In this document: positions 937-47,381 of the stretch, piece by piece
Numbering within the stretch: the stretch's first letter is position 1
How the letters are laid out: each line of letters opens with the position of its first letter
From: Pseudomonadales bacterium
Lineage (GTDB): Bacteria > Pseudomonadota > Gammaproteobacteria > Pseudomonadales > UBA7239
Direction: 5' to 3'
Length of the DNA: 53,300 bases
Assembly: GCA_035456205.1 (NCBI GenBank)
Contig: DATIDQ010000102.1
Location: 1 to 53,300 of the forward strand
Made by a program: the position numbers and the translations under genes
Notes under the pieces: model-generated
What the model was told of the DNA's origin: nothing
The model's database searches: none
The model's input: only the letters and a program-made list of their open reading frames with translations

Positions 937-994
937 CGTTACAAATGGATTTTGGAGGTAACGGAGGTAACAAAAAATGCGTTATTTGGTAACA
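937..994 (+). promoter_or_regulatory. Cluster of GTTAC/GTAAC half-sites; candidate enhancer (UAS) for a sigma-54 activator
   Basis: The sites are cGTTAC (937-942), GTAAC (958-962), GTAACA (967-972), GTTAT (981-985) and GGTAACA (988-994). Two of them form a tandem GGAGGTAAC GGAGGTAAC. The cluster sits 75-145 nt upstream of the -24/-12 element at 1069-1083. The half-sites resemble the TGTTAC...GTAACA sites reported for CbrB, but I cannot verify the spacing from memory. It could instead be part of the rppH promoter on the other strand. Confidence 0.3.
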
Positions 995-1036
995 CTTTGT
1001 GCTGCTAGCCACGAAAAAGAGAATGACTGATTTTTC

Positions 1037-1049
1037 TAATTGCTTGATA
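1037..1049 (-). promoter_or_regulatory. IHF core binding site
   Basis: The minus strand reads TATCAAGCAATTA, an exact match to WATCAANNNNTTR. It lies in an AT-rich stretch between the half-site cluster and the -24/-12 element, about 50 nt upstream of the predicted transcription start. Confidence 0.4.
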
Positions 1050-1068
1050 AATTTATAGAAATATTAAG

Positions 1069-1084
1069 TGGCACACGTTTTGCG
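1069..1084 (+). promoter_or_regulatory. Sigma-54 (RpoN) -24/-12 promoter
   Basis: TGGCACacgttTTGCg matches TGGCAC-N5-TTGC exactly. GG is at 1070-1071 and GC at 1082-1083, giving the canonical spacing. It is the only correctly spaced match I found in the window. The predicted +1 is near 1095. Confidence 0.55.
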
Positions 1085-1094
1085 GTGTTATTAG

Positions 1095-1281
1095 CATAAA
1101 AATAATAATACTGTGACGTAATAATAATAATCAGGCGTCAACCCCCAACAAGAACAAGAGGGGGAATAATAATAAATATGCGGCGATGCTGCAGATGGAT
1201 CGAGGTAGGAAGGATAGCAGTAAAAGACGGTAGTAAAAGACAGAAAGAAGCCAGAGTGGTCCGCTGCTCTGGCTTTTTTTT
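1095..1281 (+). ncRNA. Candidate sigma-54-dependent small RNA, about 187 nt, rich in AAnAAnAA/(ARN)n motifs (CrcZ-like Hfq/Crc sponge candidate)
   Basis: It is bounded by the -24/-12 promoter and a strong intrinsic terminator. There is no SD-preceded ORF inside; the longest ATG ORF is 15 codons.
A-rich tracts:
- 1098-1110, AAAAATAATAATA.
- 1120-1131, (AAT)4, within the loop of hairpin TGACG/CGTCA (1114-1140).
- 1147-1159, AACAAGAACAAGA, which forms the entire loop of hairpin CCCCC/GGGGG (1142-1164).
- 1165-1176, AATAATAATAAA.
- AGTAAAAGAC duplicated at 1219-1228 and 1232-1241.
The exact 5' end is inferred, not observed. Confidence 0.45.
1248..1281. terminator. Rho-independent terminator, probably bidirectional
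   Basis: Stem GCCAGAG (1250-1256) pairs with CTCTGGC (1267-1273) around a 10-nt loop, followed by T8 on the plus strand. On the minus strand the same hairpin is followed by the T-rich run CTTCTTTCTGTCTTTT, and it sits immediately after the FHA gene stop at 1293. Confidence 0.75.
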
Positions 1282-1292: not shown

Positions 1293-2246
1293 TCAGATAT
1301 TGAATACGATGTAGCCCAGCACGCTGAGCACGCTTATCCCCAGCACGACAGAAATCCAGAACATCATGCCAAGGTGGTGCTTGCGGGTAGGAACCTCGTG
1401 GTAGCGGTTACCGTGGGAAGTTGGTTTGGTAATCCACTCCTTTTGCTGGTATTCCTGGGACTTCAGGGCCTCGATGTTCTGTAATGTGCTTTCGAGGTTA
1501 ATCAGTTTGCGTGGGCCGGACGTTTCTGGTTGAGTGTGGCGGCTGCTTTCTGTAATGGTAGGGCCTTGCACGCGGAAGCTGTAAACGTCGAAACGCAGGC
1601 GGTCGCCTGGTTTGATGATCTGCTCGCCCTTGATCCGAATTTCATTGACGTGACTGCCGTTGGAGGAGTCCAGATCCTTGAGAACCAGATTGTTGCCCTG
1701 TTTGAGTATCAGTGCATGGTTGCGGGATAAATGGTTTCCCGGGATCACAATATCGCAATCCTTGCCTCTGCCTAGCAGGGTGGAGTCGCCTGCCAGTTCG
1801 AATACTTTGCCTGAGAGCCAGCTGCTATCAGATACCAGACGCCAGCTGGATGAAATATTAACGGCGGACCGTCGCTCCGTGACGGCCGGAACTCGCGTTG
1901 AAGTCAGGTTAGTGTCTTCCACTTCGAGGATATCGAAATGCACATTGCCAATACTGACAACATCGCTGTTGCGCAGTTCTTTGTATTTGACTTTCTTGCC
2001 GTTAACGAAGCACCCGCGGCGACTCTTGTTGTCCTGCAGGAACAGGCGCCCATCATGCTGTATCAAGCGAGCATGGGATTCGTCCACTGTGCTGGTATTC
2101 AATACCAGAGTGTTGTCTTGCGCGCAGCCCAAGGTGCAGATGTTATCTGTCACTGAGAAAATCGGGCGGCTATTGTCCTTGAATCGAAGCTGGTACATCA
2201 AAATCTGCTGGCAATCCGTGTTTAGTAAACCTTCCATCGCTAGCAT
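1293..2246 (-). CDS. Dual FHA-domain protein with a C-terminal transmembrane anchor
   Basis: There are two FHA-like modules: LGCAQDNTLVL...SHARLIQHDGRLFLQDNKSRRGCFVNGKKV and LGRGKDCDIVIPGNHLSRNHALILKQGNNLVLKDLDSSNGSHVNE. The C-terminus is hydrophobic (MMFWISVVLGISVLSVLGYIVFNI). The start is uncertain, with candidates at 2246, 2237 or 2198 (MYQLRF). A TATAAT lies on the minus strand at 2270-2275. Confidence 0.8.
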   Translation of the reverse strand: MLAMEGLLNTDCQQILMYQLRFKDNSRPIFSVTDNICTLGCAQDNTLVLNTSTVDESHARLIQHDGRLFLQDNKSRRGCFVNGKKVKYKELRNSDVVSIGNVHFDILEVEDTNLTSTRVPAVTERRSAVNISSSWRLVSDSSWLSGKVFELAGDSTLLGRGKDCDIVIPGNHLSRNHALILKQGNNLVLKDLDSSNGSHVNEIRIKGEQIIKPGDRLRFDVYSFRVQGPTITESSRHTQPETSGPRKLINLESTLQNIEALKSQEYQQKEWITKPTSHGNRYHEVPTRKHHLGMMFWISVVLGISVLSVLGYIVFNI

Positions 2247-3090: not shown

Positions 3091-3558
3091 ATGTCAAAAG
3101 CTATGATGCAAAAAATGACTATTGTTTGTTGTCTGTTGATGAGCAGTTTCTCTATGGCGGATGTATATAAATGGGTTGATGAAAACGGAAAAACCCGTTT
3201 CAGCGATAAAGCTCCGGCAGAAAAGCCATCAGAAAATATCGAGAATGAATTAAAGAAAACCAATGTAGATGAAGCCAGTAAAAATTTAAGCACATTCGTT
3301 GCTCCTCCAGCTGAAAAGACTGTTGATGAAGAAATGTTGAAGCTTAAAAAACGCAATAATCTGGAAGAAAAAATTGGTAAAAGATGTAGAAAAATGCAAG
3401 AAGAAATTAATTCTATTGCCAGAGGTGATTTTGTTGTTTTTTTTGATAAAGATGGCAATGAAGAGAAGGTGCTTGAAAAAGACCGTGGGAAAAAGCTGGA
3501 AGAGTGGAAAAATGGATACCGGAAATTAGGTTGCGATACTTTGTATCCACTGGAATGA
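3091..3558 (+). CDS. Secreted DUF4124-domain protein, Lys/Glu-rich
   Basis: The ATG at 3091 follows GAGGGG. The product has a signal peptide (MSKAMMQKMTIVCCLLMSSFSMA) and then the DUF4124 signature DVYKWVDENGKTRFSDKAP. The upstream part of the track ORF (2941 onward) overlaps yrfG and is rejected. Confidence 0.75.
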   Translation: MSKAMMQKMTIVCCLLMSSFSMADVYKWVDENGKTRFSDKAPAEKPSENIENELKKTNVDEASKNLSTFVAPPAEKTVDEEMLKLKKRNNLEEKIGKRCRKMQEEINSIARGDFVVFFDKDGNEEKVLEKDRGKKLEEWKNGYRKLGCDTLYPLE

Positions 3559-7992: not shown

Positions 7993-9552
7993 TTATTCGG
8001 TTCCAATGGCGGAAGAGTTTTCACGATGCGACATGTGTTCTGATAGCCACGGTACCAGTTTTTTCAAGCTATCCAGTAAGCCGGTTGCCGGTTGCTCATT
8101 GGGTGTTTCAGATGCCGGTTTTTCTGCGGGTAATGTTGATGCGTTGAGCGCCTGCTGGAATTGTGCGTTGGATAATAATTGCATTACAGATTGATCCAGC
8201 GCTTGCGAATACACTTCCTCGATATCGCCGTTAACCTGTAAATTGCCGGCGTTACTTTCTGTACGGGTGGTAAATAATTGTGTGCCATCGGAGGAAAACA
8301 ATATCCAGTCGAGATTCAGCTGCAATTGATAACGTTTGTAAGATGAATACGTCACCGATTTTGGCCCATAGGTATTCGAGGATTCATACGTCTCGGGTGC
8401 GCAAGCTTCCAGATACAGGCGTGATACCTGCATTTGCAAAAGCAAACCCTTGATGCGGCGTTGTGTTGCCAGTGCGTTATCGGGGTCGGCTTGCCGTGTC
8501 GTGTAATCAAAATTAGTAAATGATTTTGCGGCGATGTTAGAAATTTTCTGTGTGTCTGGCGCCAGTGATGCGCGCAGGTTGCGGATATCCGGCCACTGTA
8601 GCGGTGTCGTGTTGCGGCAGAACTGACCTGCACGCAGAACGCCCATTTGTTGGCGAGTGTCGGTTAGTGGTAATGCAGTGACTACTATCGGAGAAAGATG
8701 TTGTTGTGGGTTGCGCATCAACAATTTGCGTGCGGCTAATGTATCAACCGGTGCGCTGGGTGCAGGCAAGGCTTGCGACGTGGCCGCTTGAAAAGCTTTG
8801 TCATTTAGTAAGAGTACTGTCGCCTCGGTGATGGCCTCCCGCCAGGTGGTAATAATATTTTCCGGATTGGTGAGGCTGCCGCTTTTGCCGCTGCTGCGGC
8901 CGCGATAAATAACTTTGCCATCCGGTGTAGCCAGTTCCCAGTCCAGTGAGAGAGTGATTTGTGCGCGATCAAACTCAATGGGCAAAACATTTTCCGGGTG
9001 TAAAAAAATATTTGCTGTTTGTTGTCTTGGGGTACACGCCTTGATATCGGCACTGGTAACAACGGTAGTCAGCAACAGTCCGTCACGGTTGCTGCCAGCA
9101 AACTGGTCTGGTGTCAGGTTGGGTTGTAATGGGTAGCCGAACTGGCCAAGCGTCTGCATCAACATTTCTGTTGTTTTTCCGCCATCAGGCACCAGATCCG
9201 GGTGAAAGTTATAGGCATCCGGCCAGTATATCGGCATGGCTTGCAGGCAATGGGTTCCAAAGTGATAGCTGCCAATAGCGCGCTTTTCTTTGGGTAATTC
9301 ACGTGTATAGATAATCAACCTGGGTTTTATATTGGCCGCCGGCGCTGGCAGATCGTCGGTGTCATGTAGCGGTGCAGGAATATTCACGACGCTGGCTTTG
9401 TCAGCAGCTTTATCGGGCTTGTCTCCGTAATGCGTGCGACCTTGTTCATCTACCCATTTGTACAGCTCTGCGTGACAGGGCATTACTGCAGCCATCGTCA
9501 ATATGTATGCAGCGATTACAGCAGCGAGTCGATTAATTTTTATCAGGTTCAT
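7993..9552 (-). CDS. Exported DUF4124-domain protein with two tandem internal repeats of about 190 aa
   Basis: The ATG at 9552 follows GGAAG. The N-terminus is hydrophobic and is followed by ELYKWVDEQGRTHYGDKP.
Two collinear repeats share these elements:
- C...WPD: HCLQAMPIYWPD and FCRNTTPLQWPD.
- A second Cys: IKACTP and LEACAP.
- L.LDW...DG: LSLDWELATPDGKVIY and LNLDWILFSSDGTQLF.
- A LL(N/S)..FQ tail. Confidence 0.75.
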   Translation of the reverse strand: MNLIKINRLAAVIAAYILTMAAVMPCHAELYKWVDEQGRTHYGDKPDKAADKASVVNIPAPLHDTDDLPAPAANIKPRLIIYTRELPKEKRAIGSYHFGTHCLQAMPIYWPDAYNFHPDLVPDGGKTTEMLMQTLGQFGYPLQPNLTPDQFAGSNRDGLLLTTVVTSADIKACTPRQQTANIFLHPENVLPIEFDRAQITLSLDWELATPDGKVIYRGRSSGKSGSLTNPENIITTWREAITEATVLLLNDKAFQAATSQALPAPSAPVDTLAARKLLMRNPQQHLSPIVVTALPLTDTRQQMGVLRAGQFCRNTTPLQWPDIRNLRASLAPDTQKISNIAAKSFTNFDYTTRQADPDNALATQRRIKGLLLQMQVSRLYLEACAPETYESSNTYGPKSVTYSSYKRYQLQLNLDWILFSSDGTQLFTTRTESNAGNLQVNGDIEEVYSQALDQSVMQLLSNAQFQQALNASTLPAEKPASETPNEQPATGLLDSLKKLVPWLSEHMSHRENSSAIGTE

Positions 9553-9573
9553 CAATACTTCCAAAGGTTGCGG

Positions 9574-15285: not shown

Positions 15286-15675
15286 ATGAAAGATGCCATG
15301 GGATTATGTAATCGCAGTGAATTGCGTATCTGCAAAGAAGTGGCGGTTTTTGTCGAGACACATTCATCGCCTGCTGGCGATGCGCGCAGTCCGAACATCA
15401 TAGTGTCCAAAACGGTAGATATATCAGCGAATGGTTTGCAGATTGTGATGGATAAGCCGGCGGCGCCTGGCAGCATCTTGCAAGTGTGTGTGGAATTTAC
15501 TGGCCATCCAACGCACTACCATCTGACGGGTGAAGTGAAGTGGGTGGCGAAAATCGGCCGTGAAAATGATTTTCTGGTCGGTTTTTTATTGCTGGAATCA
15601 GACCAGACTGATATCGAGATCTGGAAGCATCGCGTAGCGATGCTGATGGAAGATCCTGCTAACCAGGTGCATTGA
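15286..15675 (+). CDS. PilZ-domain protein (c-di-GMP receptor motifs present)
   Basis: The ATG at 15286 lies 9 nt after GGAGGA. It has an RxxxR motif (RSELR) and a DxSxxG motif (DISANG). The upstream part of the track ORF (15178 onward) overlaps the previous gene. Confidence 0.7.
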   Translation: MKDAMGLCNRSELRICKEVAVFVETHSSPAGDARSPNIIVSKTVDISANGLQIVMDKPAAPGSILQVCVEFTGHPTHYHLTGEVKWVAKIGRENDFLVGFLLLESDQTDIEIWKHRVAMLMEDPANQVH

Positions 15676-21380: not shown

Positions 21381-21938
21381 ATGCCAGCGAAGCCCTCCGT
21401 CAACAAAGACAATCTGATCTGGATCGATCTGGAAATGACAGGCCTGAATCCCGATACCGATGTGATTATCGAGATTGCGACCATCGTGACTGACAGTGAT
21501 CTCAATATTCTTGCAGAGGGGCCATCACTGGCCGTCAGGCAAGCAAAAGCTCTGCTGGACGGTATGGATGAATGGAATACACGCCAACACGGCGGCAGTG
21601 GTCTCACTGCTCGTGTGCTGGCCAGCGATATTGATGCGGCAGAAGCCGAGCGCCAGACCATCGCTTTTCTGGAGCAGTGGGTGCCGAAAGGCGCATCGCC
21701 GATGTGCGGCAACAGCATCTGTCAGGATCGCCGTTTTTTGTGGCGCGGTATGCCGCAACTGGAAGCATTTTTTCACTACCGCAATCTGGATGTGAGCACG
21801 GTGAAGGAATTGGCGAAGCGCTGGCGGCCAGAGATTGCAGATGGCGTGAAAAAAAACAGTTCACATCTGGCACTGGATGATATCCGTGACTCCATTGCCG
21901 AATTACAGCATTACCGTAAATATTTTTTTGTGCTCTGA
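21381..21938 (+). CDS. orn: Oligoribonuclease
   Basis: It contains [14 protein letters not shown] and the DEDDh motifs ([19 protein letters not shown]). It is divergent from rsgA, as in E. coli. The start is the ATG at 21381. Confidence 0.9.
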
Positions 21939-25053: not shown

Positions 25054-25341
25054 ATGTCTGCCGCCATCATTATCAAGAAGCCCAGCCAGCAACAGATGGA
25101 TAGTGCGCTTGCTGCAGCGACCCGGTTGCGTGAAAAAGAGGATCCGGAAGCATTAGGGCATTATCTGTTGTATCTGCATGAACGCAGTCAACATCTGGAG
25201 GATATTTATGCCCATGTCCAACATTACTTGCGTTCTGGGCAGGCAGCGCGTGAGCACAGTATGCTATTGCGGGCGATTGAAAAAGCAGAAAAAGCTGCGC
25301 ACCCGCATGAGGATGCTGCAGCTGTGTTCCCGGGAGATTAA
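25054..25341 (+). CDS. Hypothetical 95-aa protein, helical, His-rich
   Basis: A good SD (AAGGAGAG) precedes the ATG. I recognise no family. Confidence 0.5.
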   Translation: MSAAIIIKKPSQQQMDSALAAATRLREKEDPEALGHYLLYLHERSQHLEDIYAHVQHYLRSGQAAREHSMLLRAIEKAEKAAHPHEDAAAVFPGD

Positions 25342-25901
25342 TCCTTGCGTTCGTTGTGATTCAGATTTTTTATAGCTTTGCTATTTTTCTTTTCTTCTTT
25401 ATGTAACTTTTCACGTTCCTTGTTTGTCAGATTGCCATCGGCGTTAGCTGCAGCTTCATCTTTTTTCAATTTATCTTGACGTTCCTGAAGTTCAGTCGCT
25501 TCGCCGGCGGTTAGCTTGCCAGATTTTTGGCCGGCATCAATGCGTTCCTGCTCTCTTGTAGCATGAATATCCAGTTTTGATTCACTGGCACGTCCATTGT
25601 GTTTTTTCGCATGGATTGCTTCGCTGATATCGGCTGCTTCTTGTTGTAGCCTTGAACGCTCTTGTTCAGATGCTTTGCCATTTTTTTTGGCAGCAGCTTC
25701 ACTCGCGTGCAAGTGATTGATGCGTTCTTGTAAGGTGGCGGCTTCACCAGGTGTCAGTGCACCTGTACGTAGCCCCTCATCAAGACGGCTCTGCAAATTG
25801 GCTTCATGTTCGTCGAGTCCTGGTGTATTGGTGCCAGCCATGACGGGCAAGCTGAAAATGGCAGCTGCTGCGAAGGCTAGCAAAACGGATGATTTTTTCA
25901 T
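25338..25901 (-). CDS. Secreted repeat protein (LT.GEA..LQER repeats), possibly Spy/CpxP-like
   Basis: The ATG at 25901 gives a signal peptide (MKKSSVLLAFAAAAIFSLPVMA). There are two clear repeats: GALTPGEAATLQERINHLHASEAAAKKNGKASEQERSRLQQE and GKLTAGEATELQERQDKLKKDEAAANADGNLTNKEREKLHKE. The LTxxQ-like resemblance is only an impression. Confidence 0.6.
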   Translation of the reverse strand: MKKSSVLLAFAAAAIFSLPVMAGTNTPGLDEHEANLQSRLDEGLRTGALTPGEAATLQERINHLHASEAAAKKNGKASEQERSRLQQEAADISEAIHAKKHNGRASESKLDIHATREQERIDAGQKSGKLTAGEATELQERQDKLKKDEAAANADGNLTNKEREKLHKEEKKNSKAIKNLNHNERKD

Positions 25902-25926
25902 AAGTGTTTCCCTGTCATGGTTGGGT

Positions 25927-26721
25927 TTATGGCGCGACAATAGTGCCACAATCCAGTGTTTGTCGCATTTCCAGAGAAGGCTGCGCACATTCGGTTTTGC
26001 CGATCTGTTTAGCCGGCACGCCGGCCATCAGTGCGCAATCTGGTACGTCTTTGAGTATCACGCTGCCCGCAGCAATTTGTGCACAGTGACCAATCTGGAT
26101 GTTGCCCAGAATTTTACTGCCGGGACCGATCATCACGCCGGCACCAATTTTGGGATGGCGATCGCCTGTTTCTTTTCCTGTACCGCCGAGTGTCACATCC
26201 TGCAAGATGGATACATTGTCAGCAATAGTGGCTGTTTCGCCAATGACAATACCTGTTGCATGATCCAGCATCACACCGGTGCCAATTTTTGCAGCGGGAT
26301 GTATGTCTACAGAAAAAATAACCGAGATGCGGTTCTGTAAAAAATACGCCAGAGATTTTCTATCCTGTTGCCATAGCCAATGTGCAACACGCCAGGCTGT
26401 CAGCGCATGAAAGCCTTTGTAAAAAAGCAGCGCTTGTAAATGTGATTGGCAAACCGGATCACGCGTAAAAATGGCATCAATATCCTTTGTCACTGCATCA
26501 GTTATTGCTGTGTCGCCACAGAAGGCCTCGGAAAATACTTCCAGCAATGTCAGCGACGGCAGTGCCTGACAATCCAGTTTTCCTGCCAATAAAAAACCGA
26601 TGGCTGCGCACAGGCTGTTGTGGCGTAACACGGTGTTGTGCAGAAAACTGGCCAGTGCCGGTTCGCGCAGGGATTCCTGTTCGGCAGATTGGTGAATGGC
26701 TTGCCATAAGGTTGTTGTCAT
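25927..26721 (-). CDS. cysE: Serine O-acetyltransferase
   Basis: It has the SATase N-terminal domain (DPVCQSHLQALLFYKGFHAL) and hexapeptide repeats (DIHPAAKIGTGVMLDHATGIVIGETA ... GDRHPKIG). The start is the ATG at 26721. The long upstream extension in the track is rejected. Confidence 0.9.
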   Translation of the reverse strand: MTTTLWQAIHQSAEQESLREPALASFLHNTVLRHNSLCAAIGFLLAGKLDCQALPSLTLLEVFSEAFCGDTAITDAVTKDIDAIFTRDPVCQSHLQALLFYKGFHALTAWRVAHWLWQQDRKSLAYFLQNRISVIFSVDIHPAAKIGTGVMLDHATGIVIGETATIADNVSILQDVTLGGTGKETGDRHPKIGAGVMIGPGSKILGNIQIGHCAQIAAGSVILKDVPDCALMAGVPAKQIGKTECAQPSLEMRQTLDCGTIVAP

Positions 26722-29139: not shown

Positions 29140-29703
29140 ATGCAGGAGCATACAGAAAAATACCTGCGTATATCTGCTCTGATCTGGTTGTTGTTATTAG
29201 CGCTAACTTTTCCATATCTTTTTCACTATTACGAACAACAGCACGTGTTTCAATGGGAAGACATGGTGCAGCCGCATTGGGAAAAGGTGATTGTGCCTAC
29301 GCCTGCACACACCGAAGATGTTGTCGGATGGAAAAATCTGGATGTGCCAGCAGTATTGCCAGACATGGAAATTGCAGAGCCAAAAAAATCTGTTCCTGTT
29401 GATAAACCGGTGCTGAATAAACCTGTGCCTAAAGCAGTTGCCAGGAAGAAAAATGACAAGCTCACTTTAAAAGTACCTGAAAATATTTATCAGGGCGAAG
29501 TTGCTGCATGGGAGGATAAAAAACAGGTGCCCATGCCTGATTTTTTCGCGCCCAAAAAAGATGGGCCAGACCGTTTCCAGTTTGGTGGTCGGTTGATTAT
29601 TGACGAGGACAACAAAAAGAAAAAAGAATCCGAGGCAGCAGATGCGAGTTATCTGGACGCCGTACAAGGTGCTGAGGTGAATATCTCGATCAGCACACCC
29701 TGA
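29140..29703 (+). CDS. Hypothetical membrane-anchored protein, Pro/Lys-rich
   Basis: It starts 12 nt after the ygiQ stop. It has one N-terminal TM helix (ISALIWLLLLALTFPYLF). I recognise no family, and the SD is weak. Confidence 0.5.
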   Translation: MQEHTEKYLRISALIWLLLLALTFPYLFHYYEQQHVFQWEDMVQPHWEKVIVPTPAHTEDVVGWKNLDVPAVLPDMEIAEPKKSVPVDKPVLNKPVPKAVARKKNDKLTLKVPENIYQGEVAAWEDKKQVPMPDFFAPKKDGPDRFQFGGRLIIDEDNKKKKESEAADASYLDAVQGAEVNISISTP

Positions 29704-29715
29704 GTGCGGTGCAGA

Positions 29716-30024
29716 TCAGGTCCAGCTGCGCACATTGCTCAGGTTGGGTTTGGCTTGCGGGTTTTCTTTGTAAATCAGCGCGACATGGCCGATCTGCTGA
29801 ACCAGTTCGCAGTCACAGACCGTGCACATATCGGCAATCACCTGTTGTTTGATAGCGCGATCACCCACAGCCAGTTTGACCTTGATCAGTTCATGATCAT
29901 TCAGCGCTCTGCGAATTTCTTCCAGTACTGCATCGGAGAGTCCCTTGCCTGCCACCGTCACGACCGGGTTCAGTTTGTGCCCCAGAGCTTTCAGGTTTTT
30001 GCGGGTGCGGATATCAAGTGCCAT
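29716..30024 (-). CDS. yhbY: CRM-domain RNA-binding protein YhbY
   Basis: It contains LKALGHKLNPVVTVAGKGLSDAVLEEI...HELIKVK. It is divergent from rlmE, as in E. coli. Confidence 0.85.
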   Translation of the reverse strand: MALDIRTRKNLKALGHKLNPVVTVAGKGLSDAVLEEIRRALNDHELIKVKLAVGDRAIKQQVIADMCTVCDCELVQQIGHVALIYKENPQAKPNLSNVRSWT

Positions 30025-30112
30025 GGTGGTATTCCGATACGGGTAGGGTGGCGCATTGTAGCGGCTTTAGTGATGCTAGCTGCTATCATGTTGGTAGCAC
30101 AGGAATATCCGT

Positions 30113-30820
30113 ATGACGCTCGGTTCCCCCCCCGACAATCCGAAAAAACAGCCCTCAGCCAGCAAAACGCCTGCTGGCAATAAGCCGCCTAAAAAAAAGG
30201 TCGGCCGTTCCAAAAGCAGTGCAGGTTGGTTGAAAGAGCATTTTGATGATCCCTATGTCAAAGAGGCACAGAAACTGGGTTATCGCTCACGCGCCAGCTT
30301 CAAGTTACTGGAAATCCAGGAGAAAGACCGGCTGATCCGCCCCGGTATGACGGTGGTTGATCTTGGCGCGGCTCCCGGTGGCTGGTCGCAGGTGGCAGTG
30401 AATCTGGTGAGTCATCACGGTCGGGTGATTGCCAGCGATATCCTGCCGATGGACTCCTTGGCTGGTGTCGACTTTGTATTGGGCGATTTCACCGAAGAAT
30501 CGGTGCTACAGAAAATACTGGCGTGTCTTGGCGATCGCAAGGCGGACCTTGTGATTTCCGACATGGCCCCCAATATGAGTGGTATGAATGGTGTGGATCA
30601 ACCCAGAGCCATGTACCTGATAGAGCTGGCTGTGGACATGGCTTCCCAGGTATTACGGCCGGGTGGTGCTTTTCTGACTAAAGTGTTCCACGGGGAAGGT
30701 TTTGACGAATTGTTGAAGCAGATGAAGACCCGCTACACCAAAGTCAGCACTCGTAAACCACAAGCTTCCCGGCCGCGTTCGCGCGAAGTTTATCTATTGG
30801 CGCAGGGCTTTAGGGGGTAA
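30113..30820 (+). CDS. rlmE: 23S rRNA (uridine2552-2'-O)-methyltransferase RlmE/FtsJ
   Basis: It contains [41 protein letters not shown] and DMAPNMSG. It has a Lys/Pro-rich N-terminal extension compared with E. coli. Confidence 0.9.
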
Positions 30821-36168: not shown

Positions 36169-36253
36169 GCCCGGGTGGTGGAATTGGTAGACACGCTACC
36201 TTGAGGTGGTAGTGGCGTAAGCTGTGCCGGTTCGAGTCCGGCCTCGGGTACCA
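36169..36253 (+). tRNA. tRNA-Leu (anticodon GAG), CCA encoded
   Basis: I folded the cloverleaf by hand. The acceptor is GCCCGGG/CTCGGGT, the D arm GTGG-AATTGGTAG-ACAC, the anticodon arm CTACC-TTGAGGT-GGTAG, there is a long variable arm, the T arm is GCCGG-TTCGAGT-CCGGC, and it ends ACCA. It is near-identical in architecture to E. coli leuU. Confidence 0.92.
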
Positions 36254-36290: not shown

Positions 36291-36312
36291 CCCAGCAATT
36301 GCTGGGTTTTTT
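36291..36312 (+). terminator. Rho-independent terminator after secG-tRNA-Leu
   Basis: CCCAGC-AATT-GCTGGG is followed by T6. Confidence 0.75.
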
Positions 36313-36348
36313 GTGTCTGTCGGTCTCCCCCTTCACGAGCCGCTCCCG

Positions 36349-36630
36349 TCAAGGCGTATGGGGAGGAGGCGTGTGGGATGGCGGGGTATGCGATTTAGCG
36401 GTATGCGATTTGGCGGTATGCGATCTAGGGGTACGCGATTTATGGGTGTGCGATTTAGGGGTGCGTGATGCAGGGGTGTGCGATTCAGGGGTGTGTGATT
36501 CGGGGGTGCGTGATTCAGGGGTGCGTGATTCAGGGGTATGCGATTCAGGGGTATGGGGATTGGCACTTACCCCTAGTGAGATAAAACCCAAACCGAGAGC
36601 AATTGTTAGCGCGAGCGTGCTGGTTTTCAT
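36349..36630 (-). CDS. Secreted His/Thr/Pro/Ser-rich pentapeptide-repeat protein ([H/R]TPxS about 13 times)
   Basis: The ATG at 36630 lies 7 nt after AGGAGGG. The signal peptide is MKTSTLALTIALGLGFISLGVSA|NP. The mature 70 aa read HTPES HTPES RTPES RTPES HTPES HTPAS RTPKS HTHKS RTPRS HTAKS HTAKS HTPPS HTPPP HTP. The other two frames through the repeat lack a signal peptide and SD. Confidence 0.6.
   Translation of the reverse strand: MKTSTLALTIALGLGFISLGVSANPHTPESHTPESRTPESRTPESHTPESHTPASRTPKSHTHKSRTPRSHTAKSHTAKSHTPPSHTPPPHTP
36352..36561. repeat. 15-bp tandem repeat, about 14 units (plus-strand consensus GGGGTRTGCGATTCA)
   Basis: It is directly visible in rows 36361-36560. The units nearest 36560 are almost identical, and the units nearest 36352 are degenerate. 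Confidence 0.9.
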
Positions 36631-36983
36631 TTTTCTGCCCTCCTGCATCTTCTATCTCGAGTGTAGTTCAGCACTGGGTAAAATCACTATTTGGGGTGCA
36701 ATTTCGTTCGAAAGGGGAGAGCCGGTTATGTATCACCCTGATCACCTGGCAGTGGCTATGTTGGCCTGGGTTCGTTAAGTATTTCCTATAAATATTTTTC
36801 CATGAGACATGAGGTAAGTACTGTAATTTTCCACCCGTTATTCCATGCAAAACTGGCATCTGCACTTGTTTGTGCAAGCGAGTAGTGAAGCAGAACATAT
36901 ACATATATTGAGGATGGGGCAGCTGAAATTTGCGAGCCCAGACTGCATGGATGTTGCAGTGCCTGTCAATCTGGCGGTTAATT

Positions 36984-37060
36984 TGGCCCGCTCGGCGCGA
37001 TTCGAACGCGCGACCACCGCCTTCGGAGGGCGGTACTCTATCCATCTGAGCTACGAGCGG
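36984..37060 (-). tRNA. tRNA-Arg (anticodon CCG), CCA encoded
   Basis: Hand fold of the minus strand gives acceptor CCGCTCG/CGAGCGG, D arm GCTC-AGATGGATA-GAGT, anticodon arm CCGCC-CTCCGAA-GGCGG, variable TGGTC, T arm GCGCG-TTCGAAT-CGCGC and discriminator G plus CCA. The first pair is C1-G72 rather than the usual G1-C72. Confidence 0.9.
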
Positions 37061-37454: not shown

Positions 37455-38414
37455 TTACTTAATATGCGCCAGTATGCCGTCCAGTTCATCCAGGCTGTTA
37501 TATTTCAAGACAAGTCTGCCTTTGCCTTTCGCGCTATGTTGTACCAGTACAGGCACGCCAATTTTTTCTGACAGATCATCTTGTAAGCGCCGAATATCCG
37601 GATCCATTTTTATTTCGACTGTTTTGTCCGTTTTTTCTTGATTAGCTTGTTGGTGTAAATTGCGTACCAGTGCTTCAGTCTGGCGTACAGACAATCCCTT
37701 GTTGACGACATTGTTTGCAGCTTCACGCTGTGCATTTTCAGTTAATCCTAATAGTGCGCGAGCATGCCCCATTTCCAGATCGCCGCGTTCCAGCATGCGC
37801 CGCACTTCATCCGTAAGTGTAATAAGACGTAGTAGGTTGGTGACGGTAACACGCGACTTTCCAACAGCATCTGCCACTTCCTGGTGTGTCAAAGTGTATT
37901 GCTCTTTCAGTTGTTGCAGAGCAACTGCTTCTTCCATCGGGTTCAGATTCTCGCGCTGGATATTTTCAATCAGCGCCATAGCGATGGCTGCATCGTCGCC
38001 TACATCGCGAACAACCGCAGGAATAGTGTCAATACCCGCAATTTGTGTGGCTCGCCAGCGGCGTTCGCCAGCGATAATTTCATAACGAATAATAGAGTTG
38101 CTGTCGTTGACAACAGGGCGCACGACAATCGGCTGCATTACACCCTGTGCTTTTATCGAGTTGGCAAGTTCTTCCAGCGCGTCAGCATCCATATCACGTC
38201 GCGGTTGATACTTTCCGCGTTGCAGCCATTCGACCGGCAGTTTGACTAGTTGGCCATCTTTAGGAGTCTTGTCGCGCACGGTGACTACGGGTGCGGCAGC
38301 GATGGCTTCGGCCACCACTTCTGGAGATTTGGTTTCTTCAACCAGTGTTTTTTTCAGCGCACTGCCTAACAATGCATCCAATCCTTTTCCCAGTTTTTTC
38401 TTTTTCATAAGCAT
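37455..38414 (-). CDS. parB: Chromosome partitioning protein ParB
   Basis: It contains LGKGLDALL, the ParB box (IIAGERRWRA), an HTH (LTHQEVADAVGKSRVTVTNLLRL) and a C-terminal dimerisation region. Confidence 0.92.
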   Translation of the reverse strand: MLMKKKKLGKGLDALLGSALKKTLVEETKSPEVVAEAIAAAPVVTVRDKTPKDGQLVKLPVEWLQRGKYQPRRDMDADALEELANSIKAQGVMQPIVVRPVVNDSNSIIRYEIIAGERRWRATQIAGIDTIPAVVRDVGDDAAIAMALIENIQRENLNPMEEAVALQQLKEQYTLTHQEVADAVGKSRVTVTNLLRLITLTDEVRRMLERGDLEMGHARALLGLTENAQREAANNVVNKGLSVRQTEALVRNLHQQANQEKTDKTVEIKMDPDIRRLQDDLSEKIGVPVLVQHSAKGKGRLVLKYNSLDELDGILAHIK

Positions 38415-38430
38415 ATCGCGTCAGAAATTC

Positions 38431-39252
38431 TTATTGGTTAGCTGCAATATCAATAGCAGCGCTGGTTTTATCATTTTCATTGGTTTCACTGTGGCGGCGC
38501 AACATCTCACCCGCAAGAGCAAGATAAGCCAGCGCGCCCTTCGATTGGCGATCATAGTGCATTACCGGTAAGCCATAACTTGGTGCTTCTGCCAGTTTGA
38601 TATTACGTGGAATAACGCTGCGATATAATTTATCGCCAAAATGCTCAGCTAATTGGTTGGATACTTCTGTCGTCAGGCTCATGCGCGGATCATACATTGT
38701 GCGCAAAATACCTTCTATTTCCAACTGCGGATTGATTGCATTTCTAATCTGCTCAATAGAGGACAGTAAATCAGACAGGCCCTCTAGTGCGTAATACTCG
38801 CACTGCATAGCGATCAGCACACCATCGGCAGCGGTTAGTGCATTGACCGCAAGAATATTCAACGCTGGAGGGCAATCGATCAGGATATAGTCGTACTGGC
38901 TGCGAATTTTTTTCAGTTGATGTTTCAAACGTTGTTCTTTCATCATCAGGCTGAGCATTTCTACTTTGGCTGCCGTCAGGTCGCTGTTTGATGGAAGTAT
39001 GTCGCAGCCGGATGTTTCGCTTTTCTGGATAGCTTTTTGTATATCAAATGCGTCATCAGTCAAAACTTCATAGACGCTGTGTTCCAGTTCGTGTTTGTCG
39101 ATACCGAGCCCCATGGTGGCATTGCCCTGTGGGTCGAGATCAACCAGCAGGACGCGGCGTTTAGTTGCTGCCAGTGATGCAGCAAGGTTGACTGAGGTGG
39201 TCGTTTTGCCGACACCGCCTTTTTGATTGGCAATGGCAAGAATTCTGGTCAC
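38431..39252 (-). CDS. parA: Chromosome partitioning ATPase ParA/Soj
   Basis: It starts at a GTG. It has the deviant Walker A motif (NQKGGVGKTTT) and DCPP. Confidence 0.92.
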   Translation of the reverse strand: MTRILAIANQKGGVGKTTTSVNLAASLAATKRRVLLVDLDPQGNATMGLGIDKHELEHSVYEVLTDDAFDIQKAIQKSETSGCDILPSNSDLTAAKVEMLSLMMKEQRLKHQLKKIRSQYDYILIDCPPALNILAVNALTAADGVLIAMQCEYYALEGLSDLLSSIEQIRNAINPQLEIEGILRTMYDPRMSLTTEVSNQLAEHFGDKLYRSVIPRNIKLAEAPSYGLPVMHYDRQSKGALAYLALAGEMLRRHSETNENDKTSAAIDIAANQ

Positions 39253-39265
39253 AAGAACTATTCCG

Positions 39266-39907
39266 TCAGAGGGTGTTCGCGGTTGTGTCGCCGTCGCGCC
39301 GGATTGCGATCAGATGGCGTTCTGCTATACAACCCGGCACGTGCAGGGGTAGGCAGGAGGTCACCTTATAGGGTTTTGGTACGTCGCTCAACTCACGTGT
39401 TTCGATCACGGCTTTCATTGCCCAGAACGTGCCGTTGGGGGCTAACAGGTGCTGGCTGGAGCTGACAAAATCACCCAATGAGGCATAAGCGCGTGACAGG
39501 ATTCCGTCATACAGCACGTCGGTCCGGAAGTCTTCAACCCGTGTTTGCACTGCGTTGAAGTTGTCCAGCTTCAATTCGTTTTTGACCTGTTGCATGAAGC
39601 GCGTTTTCTTGCCGTTGCTGTCCAGCGCGGTGATCTGGCGATCCGGCCACAAAATTACCAGTGGGATGGAGGGGATGCCTGCGCCCGCGCCGACGTCCAG
39701 CAGGCGTTTTGCCTCGATATGCGGTGCAATGGATAAGCTGTCGAGAATATGGCGGCTGACCATCTCGCGTGGGTCACGTACGGCGGTGAGGTTGTAAGCC
39801 TTGTTCCACTTGGCAAGCAGGGCAACATAAGCTAGCCAGAACTCGCGCTGTTGTTCACTGGCTTCAATGCCCAGCTCAGTCAGTCCCTTAACCAGCAATT
39901 GTTGCAT
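39266..39907 (-). CDS. rsmG: 16S rRNA (guanine527-N7)-methyltransferase RsmG (GidB)
   Basis: It contains [12 protein letters not shown] and the SAM motif DVGAGAGIP. It overlaps the mnmG 3' end by 20 nt. Confidence 0.9.
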
Positions 39908-41795
39908 TCTTTCCTGGCAGGGCGGAGATTGCCCCTCTTTTCTTCAGATTGATGAGCAGCAATGAGATAGCAGCCGGCGTTACGCCTGGCACACGCGAAG
40001 CCTGGCCAATGGTGGATGGTTGGGCTTGCGTCAGTTTGTGGGTAACTTCGTGCGATAAACCTTTGACCGTGACGTAATCAAAACCCACAGGAATACTTAC
40101 GGTCTCCGAGCGATGCAGGCGCTCGATTTCTTCTTGTTGCCGATCGATGTAGCCGGCGTATTTCACAGCAATTTCGACCTGTTCAGTGGCTTGTGGATCG
40201 ACTGCTGCTTCGCCTTTCAGATGGGCGATATCGGCGTAACCAAACTCTGGTCGCTTGAGCAAATCGAGCAGGCTCGCTTCGTGCAATAACGGGCTGCTGA
40301 GACGATCAGCCAAGCTATTGGCTTCGGGTGTATTTGGGTGGATGTAGGTTGTGCGTAAGCGCTCGCTCTCGATAACGATGCCGTCAACTTTGGCATTGAA
40401 GCGCGCCCAGCGCAGATCGTCGATCAGACCCAGTTCGCGGCCTTTGGCGGTCAAACGCAAATCGGCATTATCCTCGCGCAGCAACAGGCGGTACTCGGCG
40501 CGGCTGGTGAACATGCGATACGGCTCGCGCGTACCAAGCGTGATCAGGTCATCCACCATCACGCCGATGTAGGCTTCGTCGCGTTTTGGATACCAGCCGA
40601 GCTTGCCCTGCGCTTTCAGCGCACCGTTGATGCCGGCCAATAATCCCTGCGCGGCCGCTTCTTCGTAGCCAGTGGTGCCGTTGATCTGGCCGGCGAAAAA
40701 CAGGCCGTGGATGTGCTTAGTCTCCAGCGTATGTTGTAGGTCGCGCGGATCAAAATAATCGTATTCGATGGCGTAGCCGGGGCGGGTGATGTGCGCGTTC
40801 TCGAAACCGGCAATCGAGCGGATCAGTGCCAGTTGCACGTCGAAAGGCAGCGAAGTAGACACGCCGTTCGGGTACAGCTCGTGCGTGGTTAAACCTTCCG
40901 GTTCGACAAACACCTGATGCGAAAGTTTGTCGGCAAAGCGGTGGATCTTGTCTTCAATCGACGGGCAGTAGCGTGGTCCGATACCTTCAATCACGCCGCT
41001 GTACATGGGCGAACGGTCGAGATTCTGGCGAATAATCTCGTGAGTTTTTTCGTTGGTGTGGGTGATGTAGCAGTTCACCTGTTGCGGGTGTTCACTTACT
41101 GAGCCCATAAACGACATTATCGGCAACGGTGTGTCGCCGGGCTGTGCTTGCATCACCGAAAAGTCTACCGAGCGCGCATCGATGCGAGGTGGTGTGCCGG
41201 TTTTCAGGCGATCAACCCGCAGCGGCAATTCCCGCAGCCGGGCAGCCAAAGCGATAGAAGGGGGATCACCGGCGCGGCCACCGGCGTGGTTATCCAGACC
41301 GATATGAATTTTGCCGCCTAGAAACGTGCCAGTAGTGAGCACAATGCTCGACGCAAAAAAACGGATGCCGGTTTGCGTGACCACGCCGCGCGCGGTATCG
41401 CCTTCCATAATCAGGTCATCAGCGGCCTGCTGGAAGATAAACAGGTTGGGTTGGGTTTCGAGTATCGAGCGAATAGCGGCTTTATATAGCACGCGATCCG
41501 CTTGCGCCCGGGTGGCGCGGACGGCCGGCCCCTTGCGGGAATTGAGAATGCGAAACTGGATCCCGGCCTGATCGGTAGCGCGCGCCATCGCGCCGCCCAG
41601 CGCATCGACTTCCTTGACCAGGTGGCTCTTGCCGATACCGCCGATGGCTGGGTTGCAAGACATCTGACCTAACGTTTCGACATTGTGCGTAAGCAACAGT
41701 GTTTTGCAGCCCATGCGCGCAGCAGCCAGGCATGCTTCGGTGCCGGCGTGGCCGCCGCCGATGACGATGACATCAAAATGTTCGGGGTAATCCAT
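39888..41795 (-). CDS. mnmG: tRNA uridine-5-carboxymethylaminomethyl synthesis enzyme MnmG (GidA)
   Basis: It contains [15 protein letters not shown] (FAD) and [11 protein letters not shown], and is about 635 aa. The start is taken at the ATG at 41795. Confidence 0.95.
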
Positions 41796-41881
41796 GGGCT
41801 TGGTAGTCTGCAAAAGGCAAGCGAGTATAGCGAGTGGCCATTTTTCGATCAATCAAACGTGCATTTATAGCGGATTAGCGG

Positions 41882-42358
41882 TTGCCCCTGAAAGATGAGC
41901 CTCTTATAATGTTCGCCGTTTTGAACGGTCCTCAACCACGAAGTATGTGGCAGAGAGTTTTAGTGGAGTTGGTGGTGAGCGAGTTGCAGCGCGCAAGCAT
42001 TCCCCGCCCTCCGGTTTATCGTATTACGCTTGCCCAACTGGCAGTACTTGTGCCATCAATTACGGCGTTGTGGTTTGTTTGGCCTGGATTGATAAAGGCC
42101 GTGCTGGCCGGCGCAATGATTGAGATGCTGGCGAGGGCGTGGTTCGGATTTTGTGCCTTTCGTTATATGGGCGCGCGTCAAATGGATTTGGCAATCAAGG
42201 CATTTCGATACGGCGAGATCGGCAAGTTTTTGCTGATTTTACTGGGGTCGGCTTTGGTGTTTCAGAGGGCTGATATTTTTTACCCTTGGGCTGTGATTCT
42301 AGGGTTTGCAGTTGCCTGGTTTGTTGGTGTTGTGGCTACGGCCAAGTTAGTAAAATAG
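41882..42358 (+). CDS. atpI: ATP synthase protein I (AtpI)
   Basis: It is a small hydrophobic protein directly upstream of atpB. The start is uncertain. The track gives a TTG at 41882. A TATAAT at 41904-41909 suggests the real start is further downstream, for example the ATG at 41945 or the GTG at 41975. Confidence 0.6.
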   Translation: MPLKDEPLIMFAVLNGPQPRSMWQRVLVELVVSELQRASIPRPPVYRITLAQLAVLVPSITALWFVWPGLIKAVLAGAMIEMLARAWFGFCAFRYMGARQMDLAIKAFRYGEIGKFLLILLGSALVFQRADIFYPWAVILGFAVAWFVGVVATAKLVK

Positions 42359-42366
42359 TGTTCTGA

Positions 42367-43674
<1,308 letters not shown>

Positions 43675-43728
43675 TTGTGCAAATAAAATCTTTTTGGCTT
43701 ATTTAATACAAACAGTAGGGGTACCGGC

Positions 43729-44199
43729 GTGAATATCAATGCGACTATTATTGGTCAGTCACTGTCCTTTCTGTTTTTTGTGGCTTTTTGCTGGAAGCTT
43801 GTCTGGCCGGCCATCATTAATATTATGCTCGAACGTGAAAACCGCATTGCTGCAGGTCTGGATAATGCCGATAAGGCGGGCCGCGATCTGGAGTTGGCAA
43901 AAGAAGAGTCGGCTAGAAAATTGCGTACCGCAAAAGAAGAAGCGGCTGCGATTATCGACCAGGCCAATAAGCGTGCCGGGCAAATTATTGAAGAAGCAAA
44001 AGAACAGGCGCATGTAGAAGGCGATCGTCTGAAACATGCTGCGCAGGCTGAAATTGAAAAGGAAAAAAGCCGTGCGCGTGAAGAGTTACGCAAGCAGTTG
44101 TCCAGCTTGGTGCTTGTTGGTGCGGAGCGTGTGTTGCAGTCGTCAATAGACGCCAATCAACATGGAGACATGTTGGCCAAATTGGCGGCGGAGCTGTAA
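43729..44199 (+). CDS. atpF: F0F1 ATP synthase subunit b
   Basis: It starts at a GTG. It has an N-terminal TM helix and a long charged helix, and its position in the operon fits. Confidence 0.9.
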
Positions 44200-44202
44200 T
44201 CC

Positions 44203-44739
44203 ATGGCTGAGCTCGTAACGTTGGCGCGACCATATGCAAAAGCTGCTTTTGAAGTGGCTGTTGCAACAGGCAAGTTAGCAGATTGGCAAGCGATGCTGAA
44301 CATAGCTGGTGCTGTAGCAGCAAATGATAAGGTGCAGGCGGCATTGTCGTCGCCGGCACTTACCAGTGAGCAGCAAGCAAAATTGATGCTTGATGTCTGT
44401 GGTGATGCACTGGATACAGGTGCGGCAAATTTGGTGCGCGCGTTGGCAAATTATCGGCGTTTGTCCCTGTTGCCGGATATTGCAGCGCAATTTGCTGAAC
44501 TAAAAGCCAAGCAGGAAAAGGTAGTCGCGGTCGAAATTCGTTCCGCTTTCCCGCTGGATGCTGCTGTTGCTGATCGCTTAGCGCAAGCCTTGGGAAAAAA
44601 ATGGCAGTGCCAGGTGGAATTGCAAACACAGGTAGATTCTGCGTTGTTGGGCGGTGTAGTAATTCAGGCTGGTGATACTGTGATTGATGCTTCGGTGCGC
44701 GGTCGTATGTTAAAGCTGGCTGAAGCGCTCAGTGCCTGA
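44203..44739 (+). CDS. atpH: F0F1 ATP synthase subunit delta
   Basis: It contains LARPYAKAAFE and a C-terminal GGVVIQAGDTVIDASVRGRL-like motif. Confidence 0.9.
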   Translation: MAELVTLARPYAKAAFEVAVATGKLADWQAMLNIAGAVAANDKVQAALSSPALTSEQQAKLMLDVCGDALDTGAANLVRALANYRRLSLLPDIAAQFAELKAKQEKVVAVEIRSAFPLDAAVADRLAQALGKKWQCQVELQTQVDSALLGGVVIQAGDTVIDASVRGRMLKLAEALSA

Positions 44740-44865
44740 TTTTTTGCAGTAAATGTTTTTGAAGTATTTTTTTGCAGTAAGGTTTCAAAGTAAGAAAAAT
44801 TTTTAACCGTTATTTTTGCCAGAAGTGCTGCGGTTAGGCAGGCTTCTAAACGAGGATTGGCGCAC

Positions 44866-46410: not shown

Positions 46411-46463
46411 GTTAACTTAAGCATTATTAAGTACACACTTAAACACTTATAAGGTAGAGATAT

Positions 46464-47324: not shown

Positions 47325-47381
47325 GTAAAAAGTTCAGGAGTCAGATTTATAGGTCTGTTTCCTTCATGAAGTTCCAAGTAA

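Follow-up and report, generated by a model that had tools for sequence, protein, structure and literature searches.

The gap between rppH and a gene for an FHA-domain protein, in a 53,300-nt stretch of Pseudomonadales bacterium DNA (assembly GCA_035456205.1, contig DATIDQ010000102.1, positions 1 to 53,300; here called the window), very probably holds the gene for a sigma-54-dependent non-coding small RNA (sRNA), to which the FHA gene is convergent and rppH-ptsP divergent. The RNA is a new family for Rfam. On every feature that can be read from its sequence it resembles CrcZ, and on balance we favour the view that the gap specifies an Hfq sponge working like CrcZ and driven by sigma-54, a CbrB-like activator and integration host factor (IHF). 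That the gene is transcribed, which activator drives it, that its RNA binds Hfq and to which signal it responds are points that we infer. An earlier note, made from the letters of the window, had pointed to this gap as a CrcZ-like sponge candidate, and every feature that it listed is present where it placed it.

A candidate sigma-54 promoter with putative CbrB-type enhancer sites

The gene was compared in nine distinct loci of one sub-clade, namely the window and eight relatives (L001, L002, L161, L162, L163, L165, L166 and L171), all eight of which come from uncultured Pseudomonadales/Cellvibrionales-like assemblies. The element TGGCA[CT]-N5-TTGC is invariant in 9/9 loci, and in most of them its distance from rppH is similar. 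Taken alone, the -24/-12 match is not above chance, with one in the window and at least one in 31/100 shuffles. What the earlier note had described together, from the GTAAC/GTTAC half-sites through the IHF core and the sigma-54 promoter to the A-rich transcript with its terminator, is kept as a unit in the nine loci while the spacers diverge.

Counting from the T of TGGCA, the half-site R2 (GTAACA) lies at -79 to -82 in 9/9 loci and R1, read as GTAAC[A/G], at -101 to -102 in 8/9, the remaining locus (L171) having GTAGCG at -103; R1 and R2 are 20-22 bp apart. The forward-type hexamer TGTTAC is found at -132 also in L165 and L002, so that an F-type site is present in 3/9 loci including the window. 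An extra GTAACA stands at -110 to -112 in L161, L162 and L163 (4/9 with the window), 9-11 bp upstream of R1. The window has both the -111 GTAAC and the -132 F-type site, and carries a tandem GGAGGTAAC GGAGGTAAC at 954-971. The exact IHF core YAANNNNTTGATW is present at -31/-32 in 5/9 loci, the columns TAA...TTGAT are conserved, and cores with one mismatch were read by eye in L002 and L171. Since the spacers between these elements cannot be aligned but their lengths are held within 1-3 bp, the region appears to be under a geometric constraint on looping, consistent with an enhancer-dependent promoter.

R1 and R2 are often followed by N5-TGTnAC, as in GTAACAgtattTGTCAC of L165, which makes imperfect 17-bp palindromes (967-1011 in the window, and in homologs). 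Such palindromes are typical of NtrC-family dimer sites, and each R site may be one half of one.

In Pseudomonas, the CbrB site that drives crcZ and crcY reads TGTTAC-N12-14-GTAACA-N15-19-GTAACA (PMC8871633, PMC6296734); the centres of its subsites, which all lie on the same helical face, are 20-25 bp apart, and both IHF and sigma-54 are needed for activation (PMC6296734, PMC8871633). The enhancer hexamers described here are identical to the published CbrB hexamers, and R1-N16-R2, at 22 bp, falls within the CbrB range, a match that had gone unnoticed in the earlier note. Judging by its putative sites, the activator is more likely than not CbrB-like.

The predicted transcript presents unpaired A-R-N tracts on a changing scaffold

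With +1 set 12 nt downstream of the final C in TTGC and the T-run taken as the 3' end, the predicted transcripts are 147-225 nt long across the nine loci. The 188-nt RNA of the window folds with a minimum free energy of -50.2 kcal/mol (z = -4.3, RNAfold), better than 200/200 shuffles. The earlier observation that no open reading frame (ORF) with a Shine-Dalgarno sequence follows the promoter holds: the window has a 37-aa ORF without such a sequence, no ORF is conserved among the homologs, and three homologs are without any ORF of at least 10 aa.

A-R-N triplets (R, purine; N, any base) bind the distal face of Hfq, and six of them fill the hexamer. Immediately behind the predicted +1, each RNA has an A-rich tract that is single-stranded. 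This is followed by 0-3 hairpins, whose GC-rich stems vary between homologs and whose 12-17-nt loops consist of A-R-N repeats, and then by A-rich linkers. Examples of such clamped loops are CCCCC-AACAAGAACAAGA-GGGGG in the window, GCCCC-AACAAGAAUAAUA-GGGGC in L163 and CGGCU-AUAACAAUAACAAC-GGGCCG in L002. The window hairpin at 1114-1140 has counterparts in L163 (GUGACG/CGUCA) and L165 (GCGGCG/CGCCG), and that at 1142-1164 has counterparts with other stem sequences in L161, L162, L163, L165 and L002. The A-R-N tracts are retained although their sequence, their number and the hairpins that host them change. Conservation in relatives, proposed as a check in the earlier note, takes the form of an invariant -24/-12 element and of A-R-N loops that persist on hairpin stems of varying sequence.

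The window RNA has four A-R-N tracts of 12-15 nt. The earlier note had counted five; all five are in the window, but the exact count is lineage-specific, the fifth lying within a duplication found in the window only. In a span of 78 nt (1098-1175) the + strand has the motif AANAANAA 8 times, compared to 104 times on both strands of the 53.3-kb window (106.6 kb). In each homolog, AAnAAnAA has 4-12 start positions, with motifs in three or more places. As had been proposed, the tracts are predicted to be unpaired, the mean unpaired probability being 0.79-0.95 inside them and 0.28-0.47 elsewhere. Runs of at least four A-R-N triplets number one to five per homolog and cover 12-63 nt per RNA; they exceed 300/300 dinucleotide-preserving shuffles in 6/9 homologs and 299/300 in a seventh, suggesting that the three-base period is selected, and not A-richness alone.

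The 3' domain contains covarying helices and a conserved purine box

Since the number of modules differs between homologs, MAFFT does not align the 5' half reliably, and the pair counts given here are limited to the 3' domain. This domain can be aligned, and consists of helix 1 (GCAG-loop-CUGC), a purine box (GGAUC-N6-10-GGAAGG), helix 2 (CAGN-loop-NCUG) and the terminator. In the model-guided alignment 89% of cells pair, compared to 31-43% with slid partners; both sides have changed in 9/20 pairs, and the covariation score was reached by 0/500 shuffles. Because the alignment was fitted to the structure and comprises only nine sequences, this covariation is supportive and not proof. One structure was rejected: RNAalifold, run on the MAFFT alignment, paired AGGAAGG with the U-tail, a weak G-U pairing derived from a poor alignment.

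The terminator, also listed in the earlier note, is supported by RNAfold and by covariation, although a simple terminator scan missed it. Its stem is followed on the + strand by 4-8 T (T6-T8 in 8/9 loci). It ends 12 nt before the stop codon of the FHA gene (1293) and has a weaker U-rich tract on the opposite strand, so the terminator, as read from its sequence, is probably bidirectional and also ends the convergent FHA gene.

Helix 2 is intact (4-5 bp) in 7/8 relatives and absent in L171, and its fourth pair covaries (CG in 4, AU in 2 and UA in 2). In the window it is disrupted by a 13-nt tandem duplication with the copies AGTAAAAGACGGT and AGTAAAAGACAGA (1219-1244). The duplicated AGTAAAAGAC that the earlier note reported at 1219-1228 and 1232-1241 is thus real, but it is not a feature of the family, since the duplication is found in the window only and disrupts a helix that the relatives conserve.

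The purine box, which the earlier note had missed, is mostly predicted to be unpaired. The exceptions to GGAUC are L162, with AGAUC, and L163, which lacks the UC; in total there are 2-5 GGA motifs per homolog.

Because the arms of helices 1 and 2 (1179-1243 and homologs) are almost alike in sequence (GCAG/CUGC), a second pairing is available between the 3' arm of helix 1 and the 5' arm of helix 2, which would place GGAUC...GGAAGG in a large loop; this predicted pairing is possibly an alternative fold, or a relic of a hairpin duplication.

Table 1. Positions in the window of the features predicted in and around the rppH/FHA gap
Feature	Position	Strand	Evidence or remark
Sigma-70-like rppH promoter, TTGCCA-16-TG-AACAAT	907 to 880	-	Lies in blocks invariant in all nine loci
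Forward-type half-site cGTTAC, -132	937..942		Resembles subsite F1 (TGTTAC) of the CbrB consensus
Extra reverse-type half-site GTAACg, -111	958..963		21 bp from the F-type cGTTAC
Half-site R1, GTAACA, -102	967..972		Conserved columns in the nine-locus alignment
Half-site R2, GTAACA, -80	989..994		GGTAAC invariant in 9/9
IHF core TATCAAGCAATTA, exact WATCAANNNNTTR	1037..1049	-	Between enhancer and promoter
Sigma-54 promoter, -24 TGGCAC / -12 TTGC (TGGCAC-N5-TTGC)	1069..1083	+	Sole match in the window; invariant in relatives
Predicted non-coding transcript, ~187 nt	1095..1281	+	+1 placed by the usual -12 to +1 spacing; 3' end at the T8 run
A-R-N tract 1, AAAAAUAAUAAUA, single-stranded 5' end	1098..1110	+	Predicted unpaired
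Hairpin UGACG/CGUCA, loop = A-R-N tract 2, UAAUAAUAAUAAU = (UAA)4	1114..1140	+	Predicted fold
Hairpin CCCCC/GGGGG, entire loop = A-R-N tract 3, AACAAGAACAAGA	1142..1164	+	Predicted fold
A-R-N tract 4, linker AAUAAUAAUAAAUA	1165..1178	+	Predicted unpaired
Helix 1, UGCGGC-GAU-GCUGCA	1179..1193	+	83% of cells pair; both-side changes in 3/6 pairs
Purine box GGAUCGAGGUAGGAAGGA, 2-3 GGA motifs	1197..1214	+	Best-conserved letters of the RNA body (GGAUC, GGAAGG)
Helix 2 remnant, CAGN-loop-NCUG	1218..1243	+	Broken by the 13-nt tandem duplication, AGUAAAAGAC at 1219-1228 and 1232-1241
Intrinsic terminator: 10-bp GC-rich stem, UCCG loop, U8	1247..1281	+	93% of cells pair; both-side changes in 5/10 pairs

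The predicted RNA resembles CrcZ in design but matches no Rfam family

The cascade that leads from CbrAB through sigma-54 and CrcZ to Hfq/Crc, and that determines which carbon sources are used first, has been described in reviews as exclusive to Pseudomonas and Azotobacter (PMC8871633, PMC6296734). CrcZ titrates Hfq and thereby relieves the translational repression of mRNAs with A-rich ribosome-binding sites; the 407-nt RNA has six A-rich stretches, and its first 151 nt, which hold three of them, give three Hfq shifts, with binding to the distal face (PMC4063720). The literature searched contained nothing relevant on CrcZ in Cellvibrio or on CrcZ-like RNAs.

As in CrcZ, CrcY and CrcX of Pseudomonas and Azotobacter (Rfam RF01675 and relatives), the RNA gene has a predicted sigma-54 promoter, upstream TGTTAC/GTAACA hexamers (the F-type one in 3/9 loci) whose adjacent sites are spaced by ~22 bp and share one helical face, an IHF core located between the enhancer and the promoter, and several AAnAAnAA/(ARN)n tracts that are predicted to be unpaired, each about one Hfq distal face long, followed by an intrinsic terminator. 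It differs from them in its length of 147-225 nt (roughly 370-410 nt in these RNAs), in its tracts, which are often mounted in GC-clamped hairpin loops, and in its conserved GGAUC...GGAAGG box. Its location differs as well, between rppH-ptsP and the FHA gene in all nine loci, whereas crcZ lies in cbrB-crcZ-pcnB synteny. The earlier description of a CrcZ-like design at about half the size and in another genomic context therefore extends to all nine loci.

Rfam 15 gave no match to an sRNA family at gathering score in the window. Around the gap (850-1350) the best match had E = 0.17, the matches there being terminator look-alikes, and CrcZ was not matched at E up to 10; the covariance search that the earlier note had proposed, which included CrcZ, CrcY and CrcX, thus agrees with its view that the RNA belongs to no named sRNA family. 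Since the sequence/structure model, size and synteny all fail, and the hosts are outside the stated range, the RNA should not be filed under CrcZ, CrcY or CrcX.

NrsZ of Pseudomonas aeruginosa is a modular sRNA of ~200 nt that depends on sigma-54 and NtrC and consists of repeated stem-loop modules; it adjoins ntrC, uses NtrC sites and base-pairs with rhlA. The RNA described here is likewise a ~200-nt sRNA with a sigma-54-type promoter and repeated stem-loop modules, but its sites are of the GTAACA type, its repeated modules are A-R-N loops, and it has no Rfam match. A leader or riboswitch was also considered and rejected, because there is no + strand gene downstream of the promoter.

The family was observed in one sub-clade of uncultured bacteria

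Scans for RppH in GTDB genomes and JGI metagenomes gave ~160 rppH loci. The only close RppH matches (84-86% identity) were L001, L002 and L081, the last identical to L001 over the region, and these were also the only loci with the element; the other ~155 (Microbulbifer, Halieaceae, Halomonas and others) had no sigma-54 promoter, GTAAC cluster or A-R-N cluster upstream of rppH. A search with the FHA protein gave ~48 proteins at 55-91% identity, all from uncultured organisms, of which the named ones are labelled Pseudomonadales; homologs at ~40% identity are found across the Cellvibrionaceae, in Cellvibrio (C. japonicus), Simiduia and Pseudomaricurvus. Through the FHA protein we found L161, L162, L163, L165, L166 and L171, all arranged as HAD-FHA-gap-NUDIX-PtsP, the gap measuring 400-440 nt.

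A covariance model of the 3' domain recovers only the nine homologs and L172, a second contig with the same sequence as L171, in ~0.5 Mb; it found nothing new elsewhere in the window or in those ~0.5 Mb of loci, where its weak matches were terminators. The neighbours rppH-ptsP and FHA-HAD are present in 9/9 loci. FHA relatives at 62-67% identity (L167, L168, L170 and L173) and that of C. japonicus (L169) have the FHA gene in a different context; the model had no match in L167-L170, and L173 has no intergenic space after FHA. As observed, the family thus comprises nine distinct sequences, all from a single sub-clade. Plasmids and phages, searched by BLASTN with 937-1283, gave no match.

In the sister sub-clade (FHA identity 67%), a MobA-like/XdhC/molybdopterin-hydroxylase cluster comes right after FHA in place of the sRNA and rppH (L167 3412-5891, L168 1518-3997, L173 3399-5909). 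In L167 (663-2297) the FHA gene adjoins a gene for a Ser/Thr protein kinase.

An Hfq sponge and its alternatives

On the reading that we favour, sigma-54 RNA polymerase would bind TGGCAC-N5-TTGC, and an NtrC-family activator, most likely a CbrB-like response regulator, would bind the GTAACA/TGTTAC hexamers 80-132 bp upstream, with IHF bending the DNA between enhancer and promoter. The transcript, which would stop at the U8 terminator, would expose one A-R-N tract at its free 5' end, two in GC-clamped hairpin loops and one in a linker, each long enough for most of the distal face of one Hfq hexamer, so that the window copy could hold up to about four hexamers in ~190 nt. With the activator switched on, as presumably happens under carbon limitation or on poor carbon sources, the RNA would accumulate and soak up Hfq, together with Crc if the host has one. 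As with CrcZ in Pseudomonas, this capture would lift the translational repression of mRNAs with A-rich ribosome-binding sites. We lean towards Hfq titration as the main function of the RNA, given the number and placement of its predicted A-R-N tracts.

Several observations weigh against this account. No sigma-54 activator, crc, hfq or rpoN was found among the ORFs scanned in the 53-kb window, and the literature confines CbrAB to Pseudomonadaceae, a stated range that the uncultured Cellvibrionales-like hosts lie beyond. The only Rfam CrcZ match across the eight homologous loci has 16.6 bits (E = 2.4), which is not significant, the gathering score being 95. Between F1 and R1 there are 24 nt (N24), compared to 12-14 in Pseudomonas, one helical turn more, and F1 is present in 3/9 loci only. 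Many R sites have the appearance of half a GTAACA-N5-TGTnAC palindrome; the CbrB subsites of Pseudomonas, in contrast, have been described as non-palindromic, and GTAAC-like sites could be recognised by other NtrC/TyrR-type activators. Long A-R-N runs are weaker and fewer in L165 and L001. Finally, the best-conserved letters of the RNA body are those of the GGAUC...GGAAGG box and not of the A-R-N tracts, and a sponge leaves this box unexplained. The 16.6-bit CrcZ match is located at L001 2685-2728 (minus strand), in the A-rich part, and is probably driven by composition.

The chief rival is a conventional trans-acting sRNA that base-pairs with its targets with the help of Hfq, which we consider possible but doubtful. 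In such an sRNA of the class II type (ChiX, MgrR, CyaR), the A-R-N tracts and the U-tail would only load Hfq, the GGAUC...GGAAGG box or another segment would be the seed for pyrimidine-rich mRNAs, and sigma-54 would be a conditional input, as it is for Qrr, GlmY or NrsZ. A-R-N tracts for the distal face, combined with a Rho-independent terminator whose U-rich tail serves the proximal face, are the Hfq-binding signature of class II sRNAs; both are present here, and no part of the RNA body is better conserved than the box, which is mostly predicted to be unpaired. However, class II sRNAs have one or two A-R-N motifs and a defined seed, whereas these homologs have several longer tracts, some of them in dedicated GC-clamped loops, far beyond what loading needs, and no evident target; multiple A-R-N tracts are what selection keeps while the sequence drifts, and a purine box of 6-7 nt permits no target prediction. 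The same box could instead bind CsrA/RsmA. Its GGA motifs (A/U-GGAUC and AGGAAGG, 10-14 nt apart) would take one dimer, with or without capture of Hfq, and the RNA would be a dual sponge or a CsrA/RsmA decoy, coupling both global post-transcriptional regulators. Both GGAUC and GGAAGG are conserved and mostly unpaired, at a spacing that roughly suits a bridging CsrA dimer, the GGAUC of L171, read from its sequence, lies in a hairpin loop (CUGUU-GAAGGAUCA-AACAG), and ARGGAU resembles what we take to be the core of the CsrA ligands selected by SELEX (systematic evolution of ligands by exponential enrichment). The concept is that of CsrB, RsmY and RsmZ, regulated sRNAs that titrate a global RNA-binding protein, and the 2-3 conserved unpaired GGA motifs fit it. 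Those RNAs, however, carry many GGA motifs, and here there are far fewer, just 2-3 per box, the dominant repeats being A-R-N; L162 has AGAUC and L163 has lost the UC; the only match to an Rfam family of the Csr clade (8.9 bits) is on the terminator; and the promoter is of the sigma-54 type and not GacA/UvrY-dependent. No GacA/UvrY box (TGTAAG-N6-CTTACA, up to 3 mismatches) was found anywhere near 850-1100, for which reason a GacA-controlled Rsm RNA was rejected. We therefore regard this alternative as quite improbable. A compact two-protein sponge, in which the 5' half would take Hfq hexamers and the GGAUC-N6-10-GGAAGG box one CsrA/RsmA dimer, so that a single sigma-54/CbrB-like signal would free mRNAs from both translational repressors, is a speculative extension to which we give little weight.

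The remaining alternatives do without an RNA product acting in trans. The locus is always wedged between the convergent FHA gene and the divergent rppH-ptsP (9/9 loci), and its palindromic terminator, with the weaker U-rich tract on the other strand, is shared with FHA. It could thus be mainly a cis element, in which sigma-54 transcription converges on FHA and opposes any FHA read-through into rppH-ptsP, and in which transcriptional interference, antisense control of the neighbours or enhancer control of the divergent rppH promoter matters and the RNA does not. This we find very doubtful, and a purely cis role unlikely: rppH has its own conserved sigma-70-like promoter (880-907) well apart from the enhancer, selection acts within the transcript on helices and A-R-N tracts, which a purely cis role does not require, and little antisense overlap with FHA is possible because the strong + strand terminator and its T-run come 12 nt before the FHA stop. 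A small protein, such as the product of the 37-codon ATG ORF at 1178-1291 of the window, is scarcely credible; that ORF has no Shine-Dalgarno sequence, neither it nor a similar peptide is kept in any homolog, and the A-rich part is full of UAA stop codons.

Genes around the locus and in the rest of the window

The NUDIX gene rppH is on the minus strand, its ORF as listed spanning 353-889. RppH homologs align only from residues 11-13 onwards, and GTG 856, with a strong AAGGAGGAG in front of it, is probably the start instead of the first in-frame GTG at 889. The gap is then ~436 nt; the earlier note had called it the largest in the window, which is probably right, and had given its size as 403 nt, which is probably too short. 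Two other apparent gaps hold genes, one for a PilZ-domain protein of 129 aa at 15286-15675 (+) and one for an orn-like exonuclease of the RNase T family at ~21400-21938 (+), the latter divergent from rsgA. The sigma-70-like promoter of rppH lies within the blocks CATTGTTCCA and GGCAAAG, invariant in all nine loci, so rppH appears to have a promoter of its own, separate from the enhancer. The gene ptsP, with an N-terminal GAF domain, comes after rppH at 342 and continues past the edge of the window.

On the other side, the FHA gene (1293-2246, minus strand) faces the RNA gene and encodes a protein of 301-317 aa with two FHA domains and a hydrophobic C-terminus. Beyond it are genes for a HAD hydrolase, a DUF4124 protein, Hsp33, an SGNH lipase and RecN. 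The window has two genes for DUF4124-domain proteins less than 6 kb apart, at 3091-3558 (+) and 7993-9564 (-). The remainder consists of housekeeping genes (polA, cobalamin genes, rsgA/orn, ftsH, folP, glmM, tpiA, secG, parAB, gidAB, the atp operon, glmU and glmS), among which 37455-52559 holds a gene set of the origin-proximal type: parB, parA, gidB (rsmG), gidA (mnmG), atpI, the F1Fo ATPase operon, glmU and glmS. Neither pcnB nor genes for enhancer-binding proteins were found among the window ORFs scanned. Two tRNA genes, at 36169-36250 (+) and 36987-37060 (-), are the only Rfam matches of the window at gathering score. ORFs of 132-216 aa without a Pfam match (E up to 1e-5) are located at 25338-25988 (-), 29140-29703 (+), 29704-30183 (+), 36299-36778 (+) and 52588-52986 (-).

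Implications

Should the sponge assignment prove wrong, the locus would still represent a new conserved family of sRNAs, sigma-54-dependent by its promoter sequence and absent from Rfam. Should a two-protein sponge be true, it would establish a coupling that, like the CbrB-CrcZ circuit itself, is undescribed in this lineage.

If the RNA is the Hfq sponge that we favour, the same regulatory design would exist in a separate, uncultured Cellvibrionales-like lineage in which the circuit has not been described, either as an old invention that has diverged beyond sequence recognition or as a reinvention. At 150-225 nt, and with its A-R-N tracts carried by hairpin loops, the RNA would represent a naturally occurring minimal Hfq sponge, informing what makes an effective Hfq competitor and offering a compact part for synthetic biology, and the covariance model, together with the promoter signature, would serve to find more members. 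Environmental gammaproteobacteria that degrade polysaccharides or hydrocarbons would then become candidates for post-transcriptional catabolite control.

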